Shown here: positions 52,541-62,157 of the stretch, one piece after another
Position numbering within the stretch: position 1 is the stretch's first letter
Layout of the letters: each line of letters opens with the position of its first letter
Origin: a virus
Taxonomy: Duplodnaviria; Caudoviricetes
DNA length: 64,000 nucleotides
Direction: 5' to 3' (one strand)
IMG/VR virus record: IMGVR_UViG_3300025706_000021
Span: 12,503 to 76,502 of that record
Position numbers and translations under genes: made by a program
The notes under the pieces: model-generated
Seen by the model: only the letters and a program-made list of their open reading frames with translations
The model's database searches: none
Told to the model about the DNA's origin: nothing

Positions 52541-53494
52541 TTAAGCGAACTGGCTTTCGATTAGTTTGCGGTGTTGAGTCCACCCCAAAAAGTTGCCAGA
52601 CCAGGCACTTCCGCCCATGTCGATGTGAGACACACCATCTGGAACGTAGCTCTTGATCTCGACATCGCCGTCGTTGAAGTAAACGCGTGGCTCGATTTCG
52701 GGCATTGGTGTTGCCTGATGCTCGAATGGGGAGGCATGAATCGGGCGCGCACCGGCGAGACGATCACACAATGCCAGGTCTTCTTCTACCGATGCCGTGT
52801 CGCCATCGTGTTTCAAGTACGAGACGCGACAGCAGCGGGCCGCGCTGATCTTGCGAAGAAGGTCGTTGATCTCGTCTTCCTTGGGTTCATCGCGGGTGAC
52901 TCGCCCCTGCTTCAAGAATGCGACAACCTGAGTACGATCCGCATCTGTGACGTATGGCAAATGCCATTGCCCGTATTTAAGAACCTTGGGCGTAGATTCG
53001 CCCATTGCAGCGGACATGCGAACGGCAAGCATCTGGATCTCGGGCTGCGCATCCTTGTGGGCGCGAAGCTCGAACCAGTTGTCGAATTCGGTGGCGGTCA
53101 GAACAACGCTGATGTGCTGGAACGGCTCCAAGATGCGATTGGCTACCTGCTTGTGCAGACCGATTTCCGTCATTTGCTCGGCAACACGGGCTGCGTTGCT
53201 TGCTGCCTGATGCCATAACTCAAACGCTCTGGTGCGACTGTCGCCAGTTAGCTCTTCGTTCGCCTGCATGCCTGGCTGGTTCAGACCCCAATGAATCGGC
53301 ATCGCCGGATCAGTGCGAACCATTTCCAGCATCTTCTTGACCGGAATGGCGCGGGAAGAACTTGCGTTACGACTGAAGACGCGGTGGGTATTAAATTCAG
53401 GCAAAATAAAGCGCGGAAATTTTAACTGTAAAGTTGTCAGTCTTTTCCCTTCTTCGCTAATTGAATCCGCTATAACTTTTGCTTCAATGGTCAT
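52541..53494 (-). CDS. thyX: Flavin-dependent thymidylate synthase
   Basis: EFNTHRVFSRNASSSRAIP, KQVANRILEPF, AQPEI, HASPFEH. Confidence 0.93.
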   Translation of the reverse strand: MTIEAKVIADSISEEGKRLTTLQLKFPRFILPEFNTHRVFSRNASSSRAIPVKKMLEMVRTDPAMPIHWGLNQPGMQANEELTGDSRTRAFELWHQAASNAARVAEQMTEIGLHKQVANRILEPFQHISVVLTATEFDNWFELRAHKDAQPEIQMLAVRMSAAMGESTPKVLKYGQWHLPYVTDADRTQVVAFLKQGRVTRDEPKEDEINDLLRKISAARCCRVSYLKHDGDTASVEEDLALCDRLAGARPIHASPFEHQATPMPEIEPRVYFNDGDVEIKSYVPDGVSHIDMGGSAWSGNFLGWTQHRKLIESQFA

Positions 53495-54122
53495 TTATTA
53501 CTTCCTTTCTTAGAAATTCAATCTCATTTAAGTCACGTTTAGAACAGTTACATGACCAACATGCCATAACTAGATTATCAGCAACATGACCACCACCTTT
53601 AGATAGCGGTATTTTGTGATCTATCGTTCGGAGATTACTTGGTGTGTCTTCTCCACAGTAATAGCAAGCTGGTTCCGCATATAGACTTTTTAATAATTCA
53701 TCCGTAACTGTTCCATCAGATGTAACTTTCTTTTTTGTCCTATACTCAAACATTCGAACTCGATGATTTGCCAGATGACGTTCCCTGTTTCTCTTTCGAT
53801 ACAAAGAAGTTGCAGCTTTCGCTTTTTCCTTATCTTTGTATTTACTGGCAATACACGGTTTGCAATATGTCGCAATTCCCCCTAATCCCCTTGTTGATGG
53901 CGAGAATTCGGATAACTCTTTCATTTCATTGCAGCACATGCACAACTTTTTCCCATCTTCGATACGAGACATTGGACGAACGCAAATCCCATTCTTTTCA
54001 CGCTTTTCTTTCATAGCCTTGGTCTTACACTCCCTACACTGACCATTCGGATGACCCTTGTATAGTTGGTATTTAGACCAAGGTTTTTCTTCACCACACT
54101 TGCTACACTTATGCGTTTCCAT
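53484..54122 (-). mobile_element. HNH homing endonuclease with zinc fingers
   Basis: CYYCG...TIDHKIPLSKGGGH..DNLVMACWSCN. Confidence 0.92.
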
Positions 54123-54198: not shown

Positions 54199-54714
54199 TC
54201 AGTATTTCTCCGAGTGCTCGGCGTGCACATCCCAATTCGCGATGTATTGGGAGGCAAGACCGGAATCACGCAACACCAGCAGGTTTTCGGCATTTGCCTT
54301 TTCCGCCGCGTTGCTGAAATTGAAGCTGCCCGTAATGACAGTTTCCCCGTCGATCACGATGACCTTGTTATGCTGGATCGGGTGCTTTGCATCAACCAGA
54401 ACGGGAATGATCGATGCGATCTTGTAGGCGCAGCAGTATTGCTCGCCTTCGAGTCCTGGGCGACGCTGCGAGCGATCAACGATCACCTTCACATGCACCC
54501 CGCGCAACCAAGCGCCAATAATTGCCTCGCTAATCTTCTTGTTCGTCAGTTGGTATGTCATGACGTGAATCTCCTTCTTCGCCTTACCCACCTCTTGTAC
54601 GACAGCTTCTTCCGCGCCACCCTTGGGCGAGAAATAGACGGACGCCTGGGCGAATGCCGTTCCCGCTATCGAGGCAATTACCGCAAGTGCTGCCAGTTTT
54701 TTACGATACGTCAT
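54199..54714 (-). CDS. Secreted PLD-family (Nuc-like) endonuclease
   Basis: Signal peptide ending AFA, YFSPKGG, HNKVIVID..TGSFNFS, NAENL. Confidence 0.9.
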   Translation of the reverse strand: MTYRKKLAALAVIASIAGTAFAQASVYFSPKGGAEEAVVQEVGKAKKEIHVMTYQLTNKKISEAIIGAWLRGVHVKVIVDRSQRRPGLEGEQYCCAYKIASIIPVLVDAKHPIQHNKVIVIDGETVITGSFNFSNAAEKANAENLLVLRDSGLASQYIANWDVHAEHSEKY

Positions 54715-55402: not shown

Positions 55403-55684
55403 TCAGGGCATTTCTACCTTGATCTTGAAGTCAGCAGCGGCCTTGAATTTCACTGCCTTTTTCGCCGCAACCAGGACAGAACTTCCGTCTTTTGGGTTGC
55501 GATAGACGCGAGCAGCCTTATCAACGCTGATAAATTTGCCGAACTTGTCGAGATTCACTTCGTTTCCAGAAGCTACCTCGTCCTTGATGAAAGACAGGGC
55601 GTCCTTCAGCATGTATTCGGCTGCTTTGCGGGAAATCCCGTTATTTGCCGCGACGAATTCCGCTACATCTTTGATCGTTGCCAT
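55403..55684 (-). CDS. HU/IHF-family DNA-binding protein
   Basis: VNLDKFGKF, RNPKDG, VKFKAA; ATG 55684 follows GGGGA. Confidence 0.93.
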   Translation of the reverse strand: MATIKDVAEFVAANNGISRKAAEYMLKDALSFIKDEVASGNEVNLDKFGKFISVDKAARVYRNPKDGSSVLVAAKKAVKFKAAADFKIKVEMP

Positions 55685-55820
55685 TGCTTCCCCTAGTTGC
55701 TCTTGCGTTTCAGAAAGCGCTTTGCCTTGTTCAGACAAACCACCGTACCGACGCTTCCGGTCAGTGCCCCCGCGATGAACGCGTAGAGCACGTCCGAAAA
55801 TGTGATGACAGGAACCGCCA

Positions 55821-56578: not shown

Positions 56579-56866
56579 TTACTGGTTAAGCTGCATTTTC
56601 GTTGAACGAAATCGGACACGCCCCGCTACCGCAATCAGACGCATCTCCATTTCATACGCCTTTTGCAGAGAATCTGTCGTTGTTGTCGCTTCATGAACCC
56701 AGCAGTCCTCACCGTATTTGCGAATAGCACCGTGAAACGCAAACTTGGAACCGCGACGTGCAGCCTGACAGTGTTCCGCGAAGCGTTCTTCTGCCGTCTT
56801 GTTGGTGATCCCAACGTAACTTTTCCCACTTATTTTGCAGGTATGAATATAGATGACGTAACTCAT
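56579..56866 (-). pseudogene. Truncated GIY-YIG homing endonuclease
   Basis: VIYIH...YVGIT...RF.EH...AIRKYG..E; ends after the catalytic domain with no DNA-binding part. Confidence 0.7.
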
Positions 56867-56948
56867 AAGTGACTATTCTATCCTAGAAATTAAGGGCGAG
56901 GCCGTGATAGCCTGCCTCGCCCAGCGTCAAAGAACGCTCAGTTGCGAC

Positions 56949-57668
56949 TTATGCGGCTTCTTTCGAGAAATCTATCGGGCATGCGCCGCTAGAACAGTCA
57001 ATGTGAGCGAAATCAACGTCCTCTTTAATTTCACTGTCCTTGATTGCAGCCACAACCAACTCGTAGCGCGACTTCTCAATCATTTCTTCCGGTTGGTACT
57101 CGTAGGCGCTTGTGTCCGACTGCGGCATCACAGAACAACAGCGAATTGTTCTTTGCCCTTCAAGCAAAGTGCGCTTGAAGTCCTCGAACGAAAGCTCTTC
57201 TGGCTTGTACTTGAGCGTGTAGCTGATCTGATTCCCGCGATCTTCAAGCGGGGTCACACCATCTTCCTCGACACCAACAATCCAGTATTTCTCCAGAAGG
57301 CGAATGTATTCATACTGCTCTTCCGGCGTCGCTTCTGCGGCAGTTACCAGCTTGTCTCCCATGCCCAAGGTACAAATCATGGGCGCGGTAGGGAAGCCAA
57401 CGATAGTGGTGCCCGAGTAGGTTTGCAGTTTGCGAACTGGATACCCCTTTGCGCGATACTCTTCAACCAGTGGGTCATCATTGCGGAACTGAACCCAGCG
57501 CAGGAATTCGCGCATGGACGGCAAGTGTGCGCCCTCGGTCAGAGCAAACAGCTTCGAGGTGGTGTTATGCGACACGCAGCCATTGGACAGTTGGTAAGTG
57601 TGGGTTTCCGCGACTTCAATATCGACGGTCAGTTCGGGCGCTGTCTGCTTGATGCTTTTGATCTTCAT
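56949..57668 (-). CDS. nrdJ: Class II RNR C-terminal fragment fused to a 35-aa split IntC
   Basis: MKIKSIK...TVDIEV..THTYQLSNGCVSHN|TTSKLF; C-terminal DCSSGACPI redox pair. Confidence 0.92.
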   Translation of the reverse strand: MKIKSIKQTAPELTVDIEVAETHTYQLSNGCVSHNTTSKLFALTEGAHLPSMREFLRWVQFRNDDPLVEEYRAKGYPVRKLQTYSGTTIVGFPTAPMICTLGMGDKLVTAAEATPEEQYEYIRLLEKYWIVGVEEDGVTPLEDRGNQISYTLKYKPEELSFEDFKRTLLEGQRTIRCCSVMPQSDTSAYEYQPEEMIEKSRYELVVAAIKDSEIKEDVDFAHIDCSSGACPIDFSKEAA

Positions 57669-58345
57669 TTCTTTGTTCTGCCTTTCTTGTGGCCGGTTCT
57701 GTTCAAGAAGTCCTCGAAGGACTCCGCTTTTTGCATTGCTGCGGTGTATTTCATATCCTTCACGCCGTCGCTATACCATTTGAATCCAGCGTTTTTTACG
57801 CCACCTCGCTTACCTCGCGACGATTGAATGTCGGACGCAGAGAATTGCTCCTTGACGGCCGAAGCGCCCAACTTAGCCCACTCGCGACGAGTCTCTTCGT
57901 CAGTGTGAATTCCAAGCCCAAGCTCTTTCTGCTTCGTGCCGCCGATTGCCCCAGCCATCGAAGCGATTGTTTTACGCTTCACTTCGTCAAAAAGCTGAAA
58001 TCCATTTGCTTCACCGCGCTCTTTCTTGGCAATTTGAGAAGCCCTGCCACCCATAGCGCAAGCGGCAAGGTGGGCTTCGCGATTACGTCCAGAAATCATG
58101 TGGTAAGCGCAAAGATCACGCGGATCGCCAAACTTCTCGTAAAGCGCAAGGTGAGCAAGGGCGTGATCTTCCTGATGCAAAACCGTCAGGTTGCTTATGT
58201 CGTGCGTTCCGCCGAGTCTTAGCGGGAGAGCATGATGCACTTCATAATCATCAGGAATTATCACGTTGTAGTGTTCCTCATAGAGCTTCTTGGTGTTCGG
58301 GCGGTACTTGTATGAATCAGCGGGTTTGTACATTTGAAAATCCAC
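57665..58345 (-). mobile_element. Free-standing HNH endonuclease between the two nrdJ halves
   Basis: EVHHALPLRLGGTHDISNLTVL...DHALAH. Confidence 0.9.
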
Positions 58346-58396
58346 TCAGTCGTAACTTACTAATTATACAATTAAACCCGCTGGAACCACAAGTGC

Positions 58397-61300
58397 TTAG
58401 TATTGAAGAATTTCGTCGTCTTCGGTTAGTTCATCGACGCGCTTCCATTCGCCCGAAACGGTCTTGAGCTTGTGGTTGCCGGTCAGCTTCACAACCGTAC
58501 CGTCCTCAAACTCAATCTCATAAACCGGCTTAACGCCATTGAGGTATAGCTTGGTGACTTCGCGCTCGACATTGCCCTCGTCCAGAACCATCGTCTTGAT
58601 GGTTGGCTCAATCCAGGTGCCGTCTTGCATCGTCAGCAGCGCAGCTTCGGTAACTCCATGCTTGGCGAACAATTCACGCATGGTCAGAATACCTTCGGTC
58701 GTCTTGATTGCGGAATCAAGCGACGCGCAACCAGCGGGCTTCATGGTCGTGTTCGTGTGCGGAACAGCAACACCGATGCTCTGCGAGTATTCACGCGCTT
58801 CGTCCTGGATGGCTCGCTTGAATCGCGACAGGGTAAGCCAGAATTTCAGCGAGGCTTTTTCATTGACGAGATCCTTCCAGCCGTAACCGAAGCGTGCCCA
58901 TGCGTATTCATGCACGCCAGTCATCCCCACACCGATACGGTTGGTGCGGGCGACTTCCTTCGAATACAGTGAGTCCATCAGGTTCGTGCGAATCAGGGCG
59001 CGCGTGGTGACACGGAAAGCATCTTCGGCGTCATCATCCCAATCGCGACCGGTTGTTTCCATCCAGAACTCGCCGCGCACACCGGAACCCGCATGGAAGG
59101 GAACAACGTCAGCAATGACGCAGTAGCCACCCAGCTTGCCAAGCACGATCTCCCCGCATGGGTTGGTGATTACTTGAGTTTGACCGTCAGCGAAAGCCTT
59201 CGCTAGTGCCGCAGTCAGTTCGAGGGTTTCGTCGTCCAGCTTGTATTTCGCGCTCTCGGCGAACTTACCGTCGAGCAGTTTTTCGATACCTTCGCTGTTC
59301 CAGGTCAGCTTGTCGACGTTAATCAAACCTGGCTCGCCTGTCTGGTCGTAGTAGGCTGCTTCGCAGATCGCATCAAAGACGCGCTTTGCGTGTGCTTCGG
59401 CTTCAGTAACAAGCCCCTCCTTTTCGAGAAGAACCAGGCTTGGAGATTCCGCCATGACTGCGCGTGCCTTCTTTATTGCCTCTTTGGCACTCACGACGCA
59501 TGTCCAGAATTCTTCATCGACCGTGACGCTGTTGTTCGAAGACCACAGGAAGCCACCGCGCTTGACCTCGATGAACTCAAGAACGCTCTTGTCCTTCCAA
59601 TACTTCGTTGCCATGCGTGCCGCGCGGCGGGCACCACCCACCAGAACGCACTCTGCTGCATAGTGGTCTGCGTACATCGCAGAGCGCCACGGTGCCATAC
59701 CTGCATCACGCAGGGCGGCGATATTCATGATCGCCTTCATCAGAGCGCCTGGGCCAGATGCGGGGCGGTTCTGCATACCCGCGATTGGGGCACCACGCGG
59801 GCGAACGTCCGAGAAGTCGAGAATCAGCACGTCGTCACGGAAATTTTTCTTGAACGCAGTGCGCTCCATCGCCTCGATTGCCTTTGCCCAGCCCTCGCGA
59901 CTGTCAGGAACACGGAAGTAGCGAATGGTACGCCCAGCGTACAGGTGACGGGCGTTGCGATCATCAAGCGATGTGATTTCACCCGACTGAACATCCTTGT
60001 GGTGCTGATCGATAACCGGGATGGTAATCGGCATGTTTCGCCAATCGACCAGCATCATTTCGTCGTCGTATGCGCGCCCAACACCGGAGCCATTCAGCAG
60101 CAGGTAGAAGTTCAGGAAAGTGACGGCGGCGGTCGAGCAGTTTCCGGTAAGCAGTCCATTTGCGAGAACAAAAGATGTCGTTACAGGCTCTTCCGGGCAA
60201 TACACATTCGCGCGACCAACCGGCTCAATACTCTCGACCTTCCACTCAACGCCCTTACGCAAACGAAGGCAATGCAGTGCTTTCCCATTTGCAAATGATC
60301 CATCACCCTCCTTGCGCTCCATGACGCGGTGCATCGTGGTATTAAATCCAGCGATTGCGGCGTGTTCTTCAAGCCATTCAGCAGCGCTCTTATCGCAAGT
60401 GCTGATTTCCATAGAATTGAACTGATTCTTTGAGCCATCCGCGAGCCACCAGCCATAGATGAAACCCGCGATGTACTCAGGATCGCGTGAGAACGGAACT
60501 TCCTTCGCTCCCTCGAATTTTCCGATGTAATACACTCGGTCGCCGCCTGCGCTCGGAGGGGTCGTGAATTTATATCCAGCAGCGTCAAGGTATTCATGGA
60601 TCTCTTCGCGAACCTTATCCTGCTTACAGACGCGAATGCTTGCGTAAGTGCGGCCTTGCGAGAAGTGTCGCGCGCCGTCAATGCGTGACTTGTGCGCAGT
60701 GCCATCCCCAAAAATCAGACCGTGCGTGATACCGACTGGATCAAGCCCAAATGCGTCAGCAACAGGGGCGATGCAGTCACCGACGGCGATTGCGTCGGTG
60801 AACGACCCATCGCGCAGTTTCCAGCGATGATTCGCTGTAGCGGTGACGGTTTTGCGGAACTTACCCGCCGCGCCCTTCACTGGCTTGAAGGTGATCTCAA
60901 AAAGATCCTGCTCTCCATGTTCGTTAATCATCGCGGGGCGCGGCATGCCGTCACCAGCGATAACAGTCACGATCTGACCAGCAATTTTATCAAGCTCGAT
61001 TGGGCCATACTCCATCGTCAGAATGCGAGTCGAACCATCAAGGCAGTTCGTGAAGACTTCCTGGTTGCGTGTCGGTTGTGTTTCGTCGCCGTGCTGTAGG
61101 TGACGACCGGACATCAGCACCGATGCCTGACGCAAGTGATGATGCAGTGCATGGAATTCGTATTCGCGAAGCGCCGGGCCTCCAGGCTCAAGCATCGAAT
61201 TGCCAACAGCGACGCGGCGCGCAACGTCGGCCCACTTCTCGGTGACAATGTGTTCAGTGACATGCAGCTTGATTTTCAGGGAGAGGTCATCACCCTCAAG

Positions 61301-61510
61301 AACGTCGTATTCCTCGGCAACCAAGCCCTTCGATTTGCAGTAAGCGGCAACTTCGCTGTCCAGCGCAACGCTATCCATTCGCGGCAGGTCGATGATCTCG
61401 TAATACAGTGGAACCGGAACTTCGATTTTGCGGTTGATGGTGCGGTCTGCAACCGCATCCCCGATGCCTTTTGCGTAGTCGCGCGCCGGGGTTGTGAAGC
61501 TATTGAGCAT
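58397..61510 (-). CDS. nrdJ: Class II (B12-dependent) RNR N-terminal fragment with a contiguous intein and a split IntN
   Basis: SGRHL, TN|C, GVG, VGGARRAA, EPG, TNPCGEI, KPAG|C. Confidence 0.93.
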   Translation of the reverse strand: MLNSFTTPARDYAKGIGDAVADRTINRKIEVPVPLYYEIIDLPRMDSVALDSEVAAYCKSKGLVAEEYDVLEGDDLSLKIKLHVTEHIVTEKWADVARRVAVGNSMLEPGGPALREYEFHALHHHLRQASVLMSGRHLQHGDETQPTRNQEVFTNCLDGSTRILTMEYGPIELDKIAGQIVTVIAGDGMPRPAMINEHGEQDLFEITFKPVKGAAGKFRKTVTATANHRWKLRDGSFTDAIAVGDCIAPVADAFGLDPVGITHGLIFGDGTAHKSRIDGARHFSQGRTYASIRVCKQDKVREEIHEYLDAAGYKFTTPPSAGGDRVYYIGKFEGAKEVPFSRDPEYIAGFIYGWWLADGSKNQFNSMEISTCDKSAAEWLEEHAAIAGFNTTMHRVMERKEGDGSFANGKALHCLRLRKGVEWKVESIEPVGRANVYCPEEPVTTSFVLANGLLTGNCSTAAVTFLNFYLLLNGSGVGRAYDDEMMLVDWRNMPITIPVIDQHHKDVQSGEITSLDDRNARHLYAGRTIRYFRVPDSREGWAKAIEAMERTAFKKNFRDDVLILDFSDVRPRGAPIAGMQNRPASGPGALMKAIMNIAALRDAGMAPWRSAMYADHYAAECVLVGGARRAARMATKYWKDKSVLEFIEVKRGGFLWSSNNSVTVDEEFWTCVVSAKEAIKKARAVMAESPSLVLLEKEGLVTEAEAHAKRVFDAICEAAYYDQTGEPGLINVDKLTWNSEGIEKLLDGKFAESAKYKLDDETLELTAALAKAFADGQTQVITNPCGEIVLGKLGGYCVIADVVPFHAGSGVRGEFWMETTGRDWDDDAEDAFRVTTRALIRTNLMDSLYSKEVARTNRIGVGMTGVHEYAWARFGYGWKDLVNEKASLKFWLTLSRFKRAIQDEAREYSQSIGVAVPHTNTTMKPAGCASLDSAIKTTEGILTMRELFAKHGVTEAALLTMQDGTWIEPTIKTMVLDEGNVEREVTKLYLNGVKPVYEIEFEDGTVVKLTGNHKLKTVSGEWKRVDELTEDDEILQY
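58400..58729 (-). mobile_element. Split intein N-fragment (110 aa)
   Basis: CASLDSAI...KLTGNHKL...ELTEDDEILQY-stop. Confidence 0.9.
60140..61045 (-). mobile_element. Contiguous 302-aa intein with a LAGLIDADG-like domain
   Basis: CLDGSTRI, TANHRW, GLIFGDG / GWWLADG, ends VLANGLLTGN|C. Confidence 0.92.
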
Positions 61511-61584
61511 TAAATCTCCTTGTAGGATGTTATTGGAAAGGGATGGAACAGTAACTCAATCGTGACTTACTGTTCAAGGGAAAT

Positions 61585-62157
61585 TTACGCCGCAAGCGCT
61601 TTCATCATCTGCGCAGCCTGAGCGAACTGATCGGTAAGAACACCGGCATGGATTGCAGCGCAGGCGTCGGCGAGGTGTTCGTTATTCAGGGTCGGGGTCA
61701 GAATTCCACCGCGCTTGACCGCGAGCCAGGGTGCCTTCGGGTATTTGTCGAAAGCCCATTCGATCATTTCCTGCTTTGCTGCGTGCTTGCTTCCCGTCGC
61801 TGCCAGCTTGACTTCGCTTGGTGTGACCTGAATCATCGGGATCGGACAAGCTGCAAGCACCCCAATGCAGATGCCGTAGCTTGCCATTGCGCGGGCAGAT
61901 TGAGAACCAACGGGCACCTCTGCGAATGCAAGCGCGTAGCCCTTGCATTCACGCACGATGGCGTTATGAAGAATCTGAGCGCGGTCGAGATCATCGCAGT
62001 TCTTGCGAACCACCTTCGCCATCTTCTTGTTCGCCTCGGTCTCGATCAGAACAACGTCCGTAACGTCAATTTCGAGCGTTTCGAGGTCGAGAAGCGCCTT
62101 GCAGAACCCGAAATTACGCAGGGATGGGTCAAGTCCGATGACTTTGATCTTGCTCAT
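61585..62157 (-). CDS. RuvC-like Holliday junction resolvase
   Basis: IGLDPSL, FAEVP, TPSEVK, HLADA. Confidence 0.88.
   Translation of the reverse strand: MSKIKVIGLDPSLRNFGFCKALLDLETLEIDVTDVVLIETEANKKMAKVVRKNCDDLDRAQILHNAIVRECKGYALAFAEVPVGSQSARAMASYGICIGVLAACPIPMIQVTPSEVKLAATGSKHAAKQEMIEWAFDKYPKAPWLAVKRGGILTPTLNNEHLADACAAIHAGVLTDQFAQAAQMMKALAA

Follow-up and report, generated by a model that had tools for sequence, protein, structure and literature searches.

Introduction

The closest described systems to the locus reported here are the fractured genes of Dassa, London, Stoddard, Schueler-Furman and Pietrokovski (2009), namely gp41-1, gp41-8, IMPDH-1 and NrdA-2 as well as NrdJ-1 (PMC2677866). 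We analysed a related arrangement in nrdJ, a ribonucleotide reductase (RNR) gene of an uncultured wastewater phage, which is divided into two genes by the N- and C-terminal halves of an intein (IntN and IntC) with a free-standing HNH endonuclease gene between them. The window, that is, the whole stretch of DNA analysed, comprises 64,000 nucleotides (nt), positions 12,503-76,502 of IMGVR_UViG_3300025706_000021, and its parent record in IMG/VR is metagenome-derived, 76.5 kb long and 72% complete. An earlier reading of the letters alone, called the original prediction below, had proposed a naturally split intein around a free-standing HNH gene at this place. The motifs, the exact junction, family-wide conservation, purifying selection and independent assemblies uphold that proposal, and we consider it highly probable that this is a genuine, selectively maintained fractured nrdJ, the product of which would most likely be restored by trans-splicing.

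Some regulatory features of such loci are known. A hairpin over the nuclease start was described for mobE of phage Aeh1 (Gibb and Edgell) and for fractured genes (Dassa et al. 2009, PMC2677866); in the model for Aeh1 mobE and fractured genes, the nuclease start is hidden on read-through transcripts and exposed on those that begin within the hairpin (PMC2677866). The stop/start overlap, too, had already been described for fractured genes in 2009 (PMC2677866). Canonical split inteins have an IntN of about 100-120 amino acids (aa) and an IntC of about 35-40 aa (PMC12707363), and a 2025 survey of actinobacteriophage inteins reported, for split inteins, Vsr-like nucleases only.

Results

Two nrdJ genes flank a free-standing HNH gene

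Three consecutive genes on the minus strand of the window, the nrdJ N-gene, the HNH gene and the IntC-C-extein gene, lie at the positions originally predicted. The features are as follows, with the basis of each call in brackets (ORF, open reading frame).

58397-61510, minus strand: nrdJ N-gene, 1037 aa, comprising a contiguous intein, IntN and an N-extein divided into two stretches, with TAA as its stop (ORF, Pfam, alignment)
58400-58729, minus strand: IntN, 110 aa (aa 928-1037), with Cys1 (CASLDS), block B TGNH and the acidic tail ELTEDDEILQY, TAA next (motifs, Pfam, alignment)
57665-58333, minus strand: free-standing HNH gene, 222 aa from the likely start ATG 58333 (alternative GTG 58345) (Pfam, PHROG, model)
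57665-57668, minus strand: ATGA, 4 nt, shared by the HNH stop (TGA) and the IntC-gene start (ATG) (sequence)
56949-57668, minus strand: C gene, 239 aa, IntC plus C-extein (ORF, alignment)
57564-57668, minus strand: IntC, 35 aa, MKIKSIKQTAPELTVDIEVAETHTYQLSNGCVSHN, with block F VDIEV..TH and block G SHN (motifs, alignment)
56949-57563, minus strand: NrdJ C-extein, 204 aa, from Thr+1 (TTSKLF) to the C-terminal CSSGAC pair, plus stop (alignment)

The N-gene ATG is preceded by a good Shine-Dalgarno (SD) sequence (AGGAG), and its product matches RNR-II_ins_dom, Ribonuc_red_lgC and Intein_splicing (aa 943-1035) in Pfam. The N-extein ends in ...NTTMKPAG and the next residues are the CASLDS of IntN. 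The C gene starts with the IntC sequence MKIKSIK...NGCVSHN followed by TTSKLF, and after SHN it reads TTSKLFALTEGAHLP... In alignment, intein-less homologues from Rhizobium phages RHph_I4 and L338C and from Tunturiibacter phage Tunturi_5 carry an unbroken NTTxKPAG-TTSKLFGLTEGAHLP, and the same unbroken junction was found in 33 additional uninterrupted homologues. Since these homologues agree at the junction, removal of IntN and IntC restores the host sequence exactly, which is no chance resemblance. This matches the proposal in the original prediction that trans-splicing would regain the conserved KPAGTTS; the C-terminal Cys pair that it had placed in the C-half is likewise present, as CSSGAC.

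The interrupted gene is a class II (B12-dependent, monomeric-type) RNR, the only one of the phage, and the break lies in the codons of the KPAG/TTS loop (the slash marks the splice junction). The nrdJ described here is the sole RNR barrel gene of the 76.5-kb record. Together, IntN, the HNH gene and IntC form a cassette of 1.17 kb.

The intein halves keep the class 1 splicing positions

All class 1 splicing positions are present, namely Cys1, TGNH (block B), VDIEVAETH (block F), SHN (block G) and Thr+1, and the block B, F and G motif columns are invariant in the family alignments. Cys1 was found in all 67 of the 67 related N-halves with the motif, and Thr+1 in 70 of the 72 IntC heads caught by the motif filter, with Ser in the other 2. 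By sequence, IntN matches DnaB and DnaE inteins in the PDB with E values down to 8e-7. As in split inteins, we found two ORFs of split-intein size (110 and 35 aa), separated at the loop where homing endonucleases insert. Mini-inteins from the same family and site that are contiguous (137-153 aa; loci L096, L098, L115, L116 and others, L-numbers denoting related loci on viral or metagenome contigs) align over both halves, and the break in the window maps to their short linker, the canonical endonuclease-insertion loop.

One such cis relative, 64% and 69% identical to the IntN and IntC of the window, is predicted to fold as a HINT domain with a mean predicted local distance difference test score (pLDDT) of 95. 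The best structural matches of this model are the Npu DnaE, RadA, GyrA, DnaB, RecA, gp41-1 and NrdJ-1 inteins, with template modelling (TM) scores of about 0.65-0.78 (0.72-0.74 for Npu DnaE) at identities of 14-21%.

Ratios of non-synonymous to synonymous substitution rates (dN/dS) were calculated against the diverged phages L085, L086 and L087, at dS of about 0.7-3.7. They were 0.06-0.21 for IntN, 0.01-0.11 for IntC, 0.06-0.18 for the HNH gene and 0.06-0.34 for the exteins. Given the low dN/dS of IntN, IntC and HNH, all three parts of the cassette have been kept as proteins over a long divergence.

The original prediction had described an acidic IntN end and a basic IntC. The first part stands, IntN having a net charge of -9 (-6 in the last 40 aa), and the second applies to the first 8 residues of IntC, which hold three Lys and no acidic residue; the net charge of the whole IntC is -1. 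It had also called Thr+1 with an HNH-type spacer gene unusual. Thr+1 proved to be the rule in the family because the insertion site is KPxG/T, and since Thr+1 also occurs at the homologous loop of the class I gene of Klebsiella phage phiKp_21 (see below), it is a property of the RNR loop. HNH lies outside the nuclease types reported in 2009.

The HNH gene encodes a probable MobE-like endonuclease

The HNH gene matches PF01844 (E=2.6e-5) and phrog_655 'homing endonuclease' (E=2e-10). In its product, a MobE-like HNH core is accompanied by a helical region that bears GG(K/R) repeats and, at the C-terminus, by a WYxDG...KYT module. The catalytic core EVHHxxPxxxGG..NL..H..AH, followed by GDxRDLCAYHM, is invariant across the family, and pairwise alignment of the core with T4 MobE gave 31% identity over 52 residues (E=2e-7). 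The AlphaFold model has a pLDDT of 84 overall and above 90 in the core. In a Foldseek search with this model, the nuclease core of about 60-70 residues alone matched HNH nucleases, the rest being without a clear solved relative. The start is likely ATG 58333, as in public gene calls (222 aa), rather than GTG 58345.

A hairpin, a TATAAT box and a stop/start overlap surround the HNH gene

The region in front of the HNH gene holds two further features.

58334-58396, minus strand: spacer, 63 nt, from the IntN stop to the HNH ATG, with a TATAAT box (58368-58363) and a degenerate palindrome (58358-58343)
58318-58384, minus strand: predicted RNA hairpin, in which the 5' arm CCAGCGGGTTT (58384-58374) pairs with AAACCCGCTG (58327-58318, HNH codons 3-6) (folding, z = -3.4)

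The hairpin encloses the TATAAT box, a weak SD sequence and the HNH ATG. A comparable hairpin was predicted in 7 of 8 loci folded with controls (z -3 to -6), and comparable stems beside the HNH start in 6 of 7 additional loci folded without controls. The stem is kept by compensatory changes in L085, L087 and L102 and in a shifted register in L086. The loops hold a -10-like box (TATAAT, TATCAT or TATAGT), and a box of the TATAAATA type is found in at least one diverged locus (L111).

An 'own TATAAT and operator' had been proposed before the HNH gene. The TATAAT box is good; a sigma-70 scan of this region called no promoter, and the putative operator is a degenerate copy of AAGTCA-N4-TGACTT, a palindrome over-represented in the window (67 matches with at most 3 mismatches, against 24 expected). 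With N5 spacing the palindrome showed no enrichment, and N4 is the right spacing. The copy before HNH, at 58343-58358 (GTAAGTTACGACTGAGTGGA), has 3 mismatches, and better copies stand at the same spot in L085-L087 and in a strain about 2% diverged from the window (T-to-C at 58354, run X6; X6 and X9 denote sequencing runs). A near-perfect extended palindrome, CAGTAAGTCACGATTGAGTTACTG, lies at 61545-61572 (minus strand), about 35 nt upstream of the N-gene start, and is close to GTAAGTTACGACTGAGTGGA.

We rejected two further candidates in this region. A read-through fusion of IntN and HNH would be in the same frame, but two in-frame stops lie between them (TAA 58399-58397 and TGA 58348-58346). 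Metatranscriptome run X9 was set aside as evidence of expression or of an internal promoter, as its contigs cover only 57636-57932 and 58004-58275 (HNH and the HNH-IntC junction) and DNA carry-over is possible.

At the other end of the HNH gene, the predicted ATGA overlap of its stop with the start of the C-half is present at 57665-57668, and the C-half ATG has no SD sequence at a useful distance. In 22 of 25 complete related loci the HNH 3' end overlaps the IntC start by 1-38 nt. This frequent overlap and a C-half without a good SD sequence make translational coupling to HNH plausible, and the C-half is probably translated in this way, as judged from the sequence.

Independent assemblies carry the same layout

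Logan contigs of two runs, from an anaerobic digester (2016) and from activated sludge (2022), possibly including the source sample, each cover 56800-61600 without a difference. A 2025 wastewater run contains the strain about 2% diverged, with a contig over 57662-61252 that has 72 substitutions and no indels and extends across HNH, the spacer and the stop of IntN. The independent assemblies of 2016, 2022 and 2025 with the same layout contradict an assembly artefact, which the original prediction had named as one possible refutation. A megablast search of phage records with the locus gave no near-identical record, and tblastn searches of a phage genome collection with the C-half, HNH and IntN found nothing close, no cultured phage there carrying the cassette.

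The cassette belongs to a large family with several layouts

We surveyed the family by protein searches with IntN, the C-half and HNH, in viral contigs, and by a metagenome scan seeded with an IntC alignment. The IntN-region search returned 68 proteins. In about 60 of these TGNH is kept and the protein stops 106-117 aa beyond KPxG-C, and 5 have a contiguous intein instead. The C-half search returned 441 proteins; of the best 120 of C-half length, at least 78 carry at their start an IntC of 35-37 aa ending in HN, followed by Thr and rarely by Ser. Relatives of the HNH protein form about 70 cluster representatives (37-83% identical), many of them on the same contigs as intein halves. Their names are 'hypothetical protein' or, once, 'general stress protein YciG', and none is informative.

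Among the best 80 viral contigs with the C-extein, most are uninterrupted at the KPxG site, the IntN-HNH-IntC layout occurs in L004, L005 and L052, and a large contiguous intein occurs in L011. The same cassette is found in a far-diverged clade of monomeric-type NrdJ at ITCVKPSG/TVSQLVD, with exteins about 23-25% identical to those of the window. In L089 and L090 an HNH gene of the same family stands free directly downstream of an uninterrupted nrdJ with VKPSGTVS intact. Of the HNH relatives in Aeromonas phages, the one in avDM2, the single record inspected, was rejected as a split-gene nuclease: it lies beside a dCMP hydroxymethylase gene and not inside the split polB.

The metagenome scan gave 80 loci, 61 of them readable, to which the following layout counts refer.

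Complete IntN-HNH-IntC: 25/61 loci
HNH-IntC with IntN off the contig: 9/61 loci
Split without a nuclease gene: 11/61 loci
Contiguous intein: 10/61 loci (7 mini, 3 large)
Split with a 0.95-1.3-kb gene that has sub-threshold Vsr/DUF559-like nuclease matches: 6/61 loci

The same HNH family is thus present in 34 of the readable loci. With 11 splits free of a nuclease gene, the claim that the endonuclease cannot easily be lost is not supported as worded. Two of these nuclease-less splits, L097 (1835-1945) and L167 (4418-4501), keep only the last 28-37 HNH codons in frame, with a stop that abuts or overlaps the beginning of IntC. It seems to be the 3' end of the nuclease gene, and not the nuclease, that resists loss.

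Gain and loss of the nuclease gene

In an intein tree of 49 family members, the sequences cluster by extein class and the layout changes at least 13 times. Two lake/metagenome phage loci, both at KPSG/T, have near-identical inteins and different layouts: L106 is split with HNH and L116 is contiguous. An 821-nt insert (L106:3682-4502) stands in one against a 66-nt linker (L116:4434-4499) in the other, with flanks 96% and 93% identical. Beside the insertion point the two loci are 95-99% identical; two kb upstream this drops to about 83-88%, and on the downstream side to about 70-80%. The L116 N-extein holds an extra 1.2-kb stretch missing from L106. Such a gradient in identity, read from the two sequences, is what a recent gene conversion with its centre at the nuclease insertion site would be expected to leave.

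A second intein and the neighbouring genes

The nrdJ N-gene carries a further intein upstream of IntN.

60140-61045, minus strand: contiguous intein, 302 aa (aa 156-457), at FTN/CST in the nrdJ N-gene (alignment)

It has two LAGLIDADG-like motifs (LIFGDG and FIYGWWLADG) and a weak, sub-threshold match to PF14528, and copies 48-73% identical occupy the same site in L004, L022 and L049. Directly downstream of the nrdJ C-gene lies a GIY-YIG ORF of 95 aa with the catalytic domain only (PF01541 E=2.6e-9; 56582-56866, minus strand), and its promoter-like site, TAGTCA-18-TATATT, overlaps a copy of the palindrome. Further genes downstream, all on the minus strand, encode an HU-type DNA-binding protein (55406-55738), a PLD-like nuclease-domain protein (54202-54654) and a Cys-rich HNH_5 endonuclease of 212 aa (53487-54122).

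Discussion

We propose that the two precursors, N-extein-IntN and IntC-C-extein, would associate via the intein halves, which would fold to a HINT domain and trans-splice via Cys1, TxxH, the block F Asp, His-Asn and Thr+1. An intact NrdJ of about 829 aa would result once the 302-aa intein upstream had also been removed by cis-splicing. Kinship suggests that HNH is a MobE-like free-standing homing endonuclease, which presumably cuts the intein-less nrdJ of co-infecting phages near the site, whereupon repair would copy the cassette in. The hairpin may restrain HNH translation on read-through transcripts by covering the ribosome site and the start, and the -10-like box inside it could yield a transcript without the 5' arm. 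Translation of the C-half would then depend on that of HNH through the ATGA overlap.

Several points weigh against this scheme in one or another of its parts. If the hairpin blocks translation of HNH, on which that of the C-half would depend, a sufficient supply of C-half is hard to explain. The sigma-70 scan calls no promoter before HNH, where only the TATAAT box is good, and the charge complementarity between IntN and IntC is only local. The strain about 2% diverged (run X6) has ATA at the HNH ATG (58333-58331; change at 58331), and the HNH start, ATG 58333 or GTG 58345, is therefore uncertain. An inter-clade transfer of the cassette between NrdJ clades was considered and is not forced by well-supported branches of the intein tree. 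Recent transfer of the window's own cassette is not supported, as identity to the nearest relatives, L004 and L005, is flat at 68-76% (nt) with no peak or gradient. We regard the chances that the window's own HNH copy is still homing as about evenly balanced.

Of the alternatives, the one that fares best also has the split intein splicing and differs over the nuclease: HNH would no longer be mobile here and would be kept for the start signals that its 3' end and its translation give to the C-half, or for some other domesticated role. The age of the window's cassette (dS of about 1 or more against its relatives, with no identity peak) fits this, as do a C-half that overlaps the HNH stop and lacks its own SD sequence, the deletion derivatives L097 and L167, which keep exactly the last 28-37 HNH codons beside the IntC start, and a tree that forces no transfer between clades. 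However, purifying selection (dN/dS 0.06-0.18) covers the whole HNH protein and not just its 3' end, the catalytic core being invariant, 11 loci do without a nuclease gene, the same family stands free beside uninterrupted nrdJ, and L106 and L116 show a gain or loss that is recent, with an identity gradient resembling that of co-conversion. We regard an immobile HNH as a minority possibility, though an appreciable one.

An extension of the fractured-gene reading goes further and seems to us rather doubtful. In it, the locus would be an actively cycling composite element, the intein family switching repeatedly between cis and trans as the MobE-like HNH enters and leaves the loop, and the nuclease hairpin/promoter switch together with the stop-start coupling would gate the C-half and the maturation of RNR. 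If this were true, a selfish gene would time a core metabolic enzyme during infection.

That the halves are splicing-dead and act as a non-covalent clasp for two NrdJ pieces, as in the two-piece NrdA of phage Aeh1, we consider very improbable. Working split RNRs without splicing are known (Aeh1; PMC2677866, PMC3045599), but here Cys1, TxxH, the block F Asp, His-Asn and Thr+1 are intact, also family-wide, the dN/dS of IntC falls as low as 0.01, and nearly identical cis mini-inteins at the same site must splice for a working enzyme. It is scarcely credible that nrdJ is a decaying pseudogene broken by selfish elements and giving no active enzyme. One gene does bear three selfish inserts (the cis intein, the split intein and HNH) and has a GIY-YIG gene directly downstream; against this, purifying selection acts on both exteins, every reading frame is open, dozens of diverged phages show the same arrangement and the record has no other RNR gene. 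An assembly or chimera artefact behind the stop codon and the HNH insert, conceivable for a window from a metagenome-derived virus record, is practically negligible given the identical stretch in Logan contigs of different studies and years, the diverged strain without indels across the IntN stop and HNH, and a layout common to dozens of diverged loci.

Given a genuine fractured nrdJ, several consequences follow for the study of such genes. Related sequences hold every stage of the gene-breaking model of Dassa et al. (HNH beside an intact nrdJ, a cis mini-intein, a split with HNH, a split with an HNH remnant and a split alone), and one near-identical pair differs only by a 0.8-kb insert. With these sequences, the model can be tested on one system. 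The phosphate-loop site, KPxG/T (PSE/T in class I), is an intein hot spot in phage RNRs. Dozens of natural Cys1/Thr+1 pairs are available as plausible orthogonal tools that leave a Thr scar; orthogonality is plausible because identity between the cis relative and any intein of characterised structure is no more than 14-21%. Annotation is also affected, as genes of this family are now called 'hypothetical protein' or truncated RNR.

Comparison with known systems

The locus resembles the fractured genes of 2009 in its same-strand order of N-extein-IntN, free-standing nuclease gene and IntC-C-extein within a phage gene of DNA metabolism, and also in the short spacer before the nuclease gene, the hairpin over the nuclease start with a promoter-like box and the nuclease 3' end overlapping the IntC start. 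It shares an acidic IntN and a basic IntC head with NrdJ-1. The insertion site differs: NrdJ-1 and NrdJ-2 are inserted one residue after the thiyl-radical Cys site (PMC2677866), in line with the original remark that NrdJ-1 uses another site, whereas the site here is KPxG/T and NPCGEI is uninterrupted. The +1 residue, unlike in the cases of 2009, is Thr, and identity of the cis relative of the window's intein is as low as 14% with NrdJ-1 (structure 8ubs) and 16% with gp41-1. The nuclease here is HNH (MobE-like), whereas those of 2009 were GIY-YIG and Vsr-like only, HNH being merely predicted (PMC2677866). The present case, together with a large natural family, bears out that prediction that HNH can fracture genes via inteins. 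Our literature search for HNH-type split-intein fractured genes, the KPxG/T site or the present family found nothing specific, with subscription journals mostly, and InBase, outside the search; Swithers (2009) and Pinto (2020) gave no help on these points.

As in Aeh1 (nrdA-a/mobE/nrdA-b) and T4 (mobE between nrdA and nrdB), a MobE-type HNH gene lies in or beside an RNR gene, with a regulated nuclease start (hairpin and late promoter), and overlaps the next gene downstream. An intein is lacking in Aeh1, the halves of which join non-covalently, whereas complete conserved intein halves flank the nuclease gene here; the likeness to T4 MobE is confined to the 52-aa HNH core (31%).

Salmonella phage S16 uvsW (L176, NC_020416, 2206-4932) has a similar layout of helicase-IntN, an overlapping nuclease gene and IntC-helicase: gp114 ends in IntN, gp114.1, which is TnsA/PD-(D/E)xK-like with NUMOD3, overlaps both neighbours, and gp115 starts with IntC (...ALAHN/C). 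In the record the three are labelled 'DNA helicase / hypothetical protein / DNA helicase'. The S16 nuclease differs from the one described here in being PD-(D/E)xK (TnsA/Vsr-like) with NUMOD3, and the S16 IntN is 49% identical to that of the window over the last half only. In nrdA of Klebsiella phage phiKp_21 (L178, LC768485, 1138-4850), the split lies at the homologous RNR loop, with the class I junction PSE/TSSQISN and an IntC ending ...GIVSHN/T. Its IntN is only 33% identical (full length) to that of the window, and its intervening 323-aa ORF does not belong to the window's HNH family; this ORF falls in phrog_5104 and has a weak endonuclease VII match. The layout of the window's locus is known, but the insertion site, the intein family and the nuclease type seem to be new to fractured genes and occur commonly in metagenomes.

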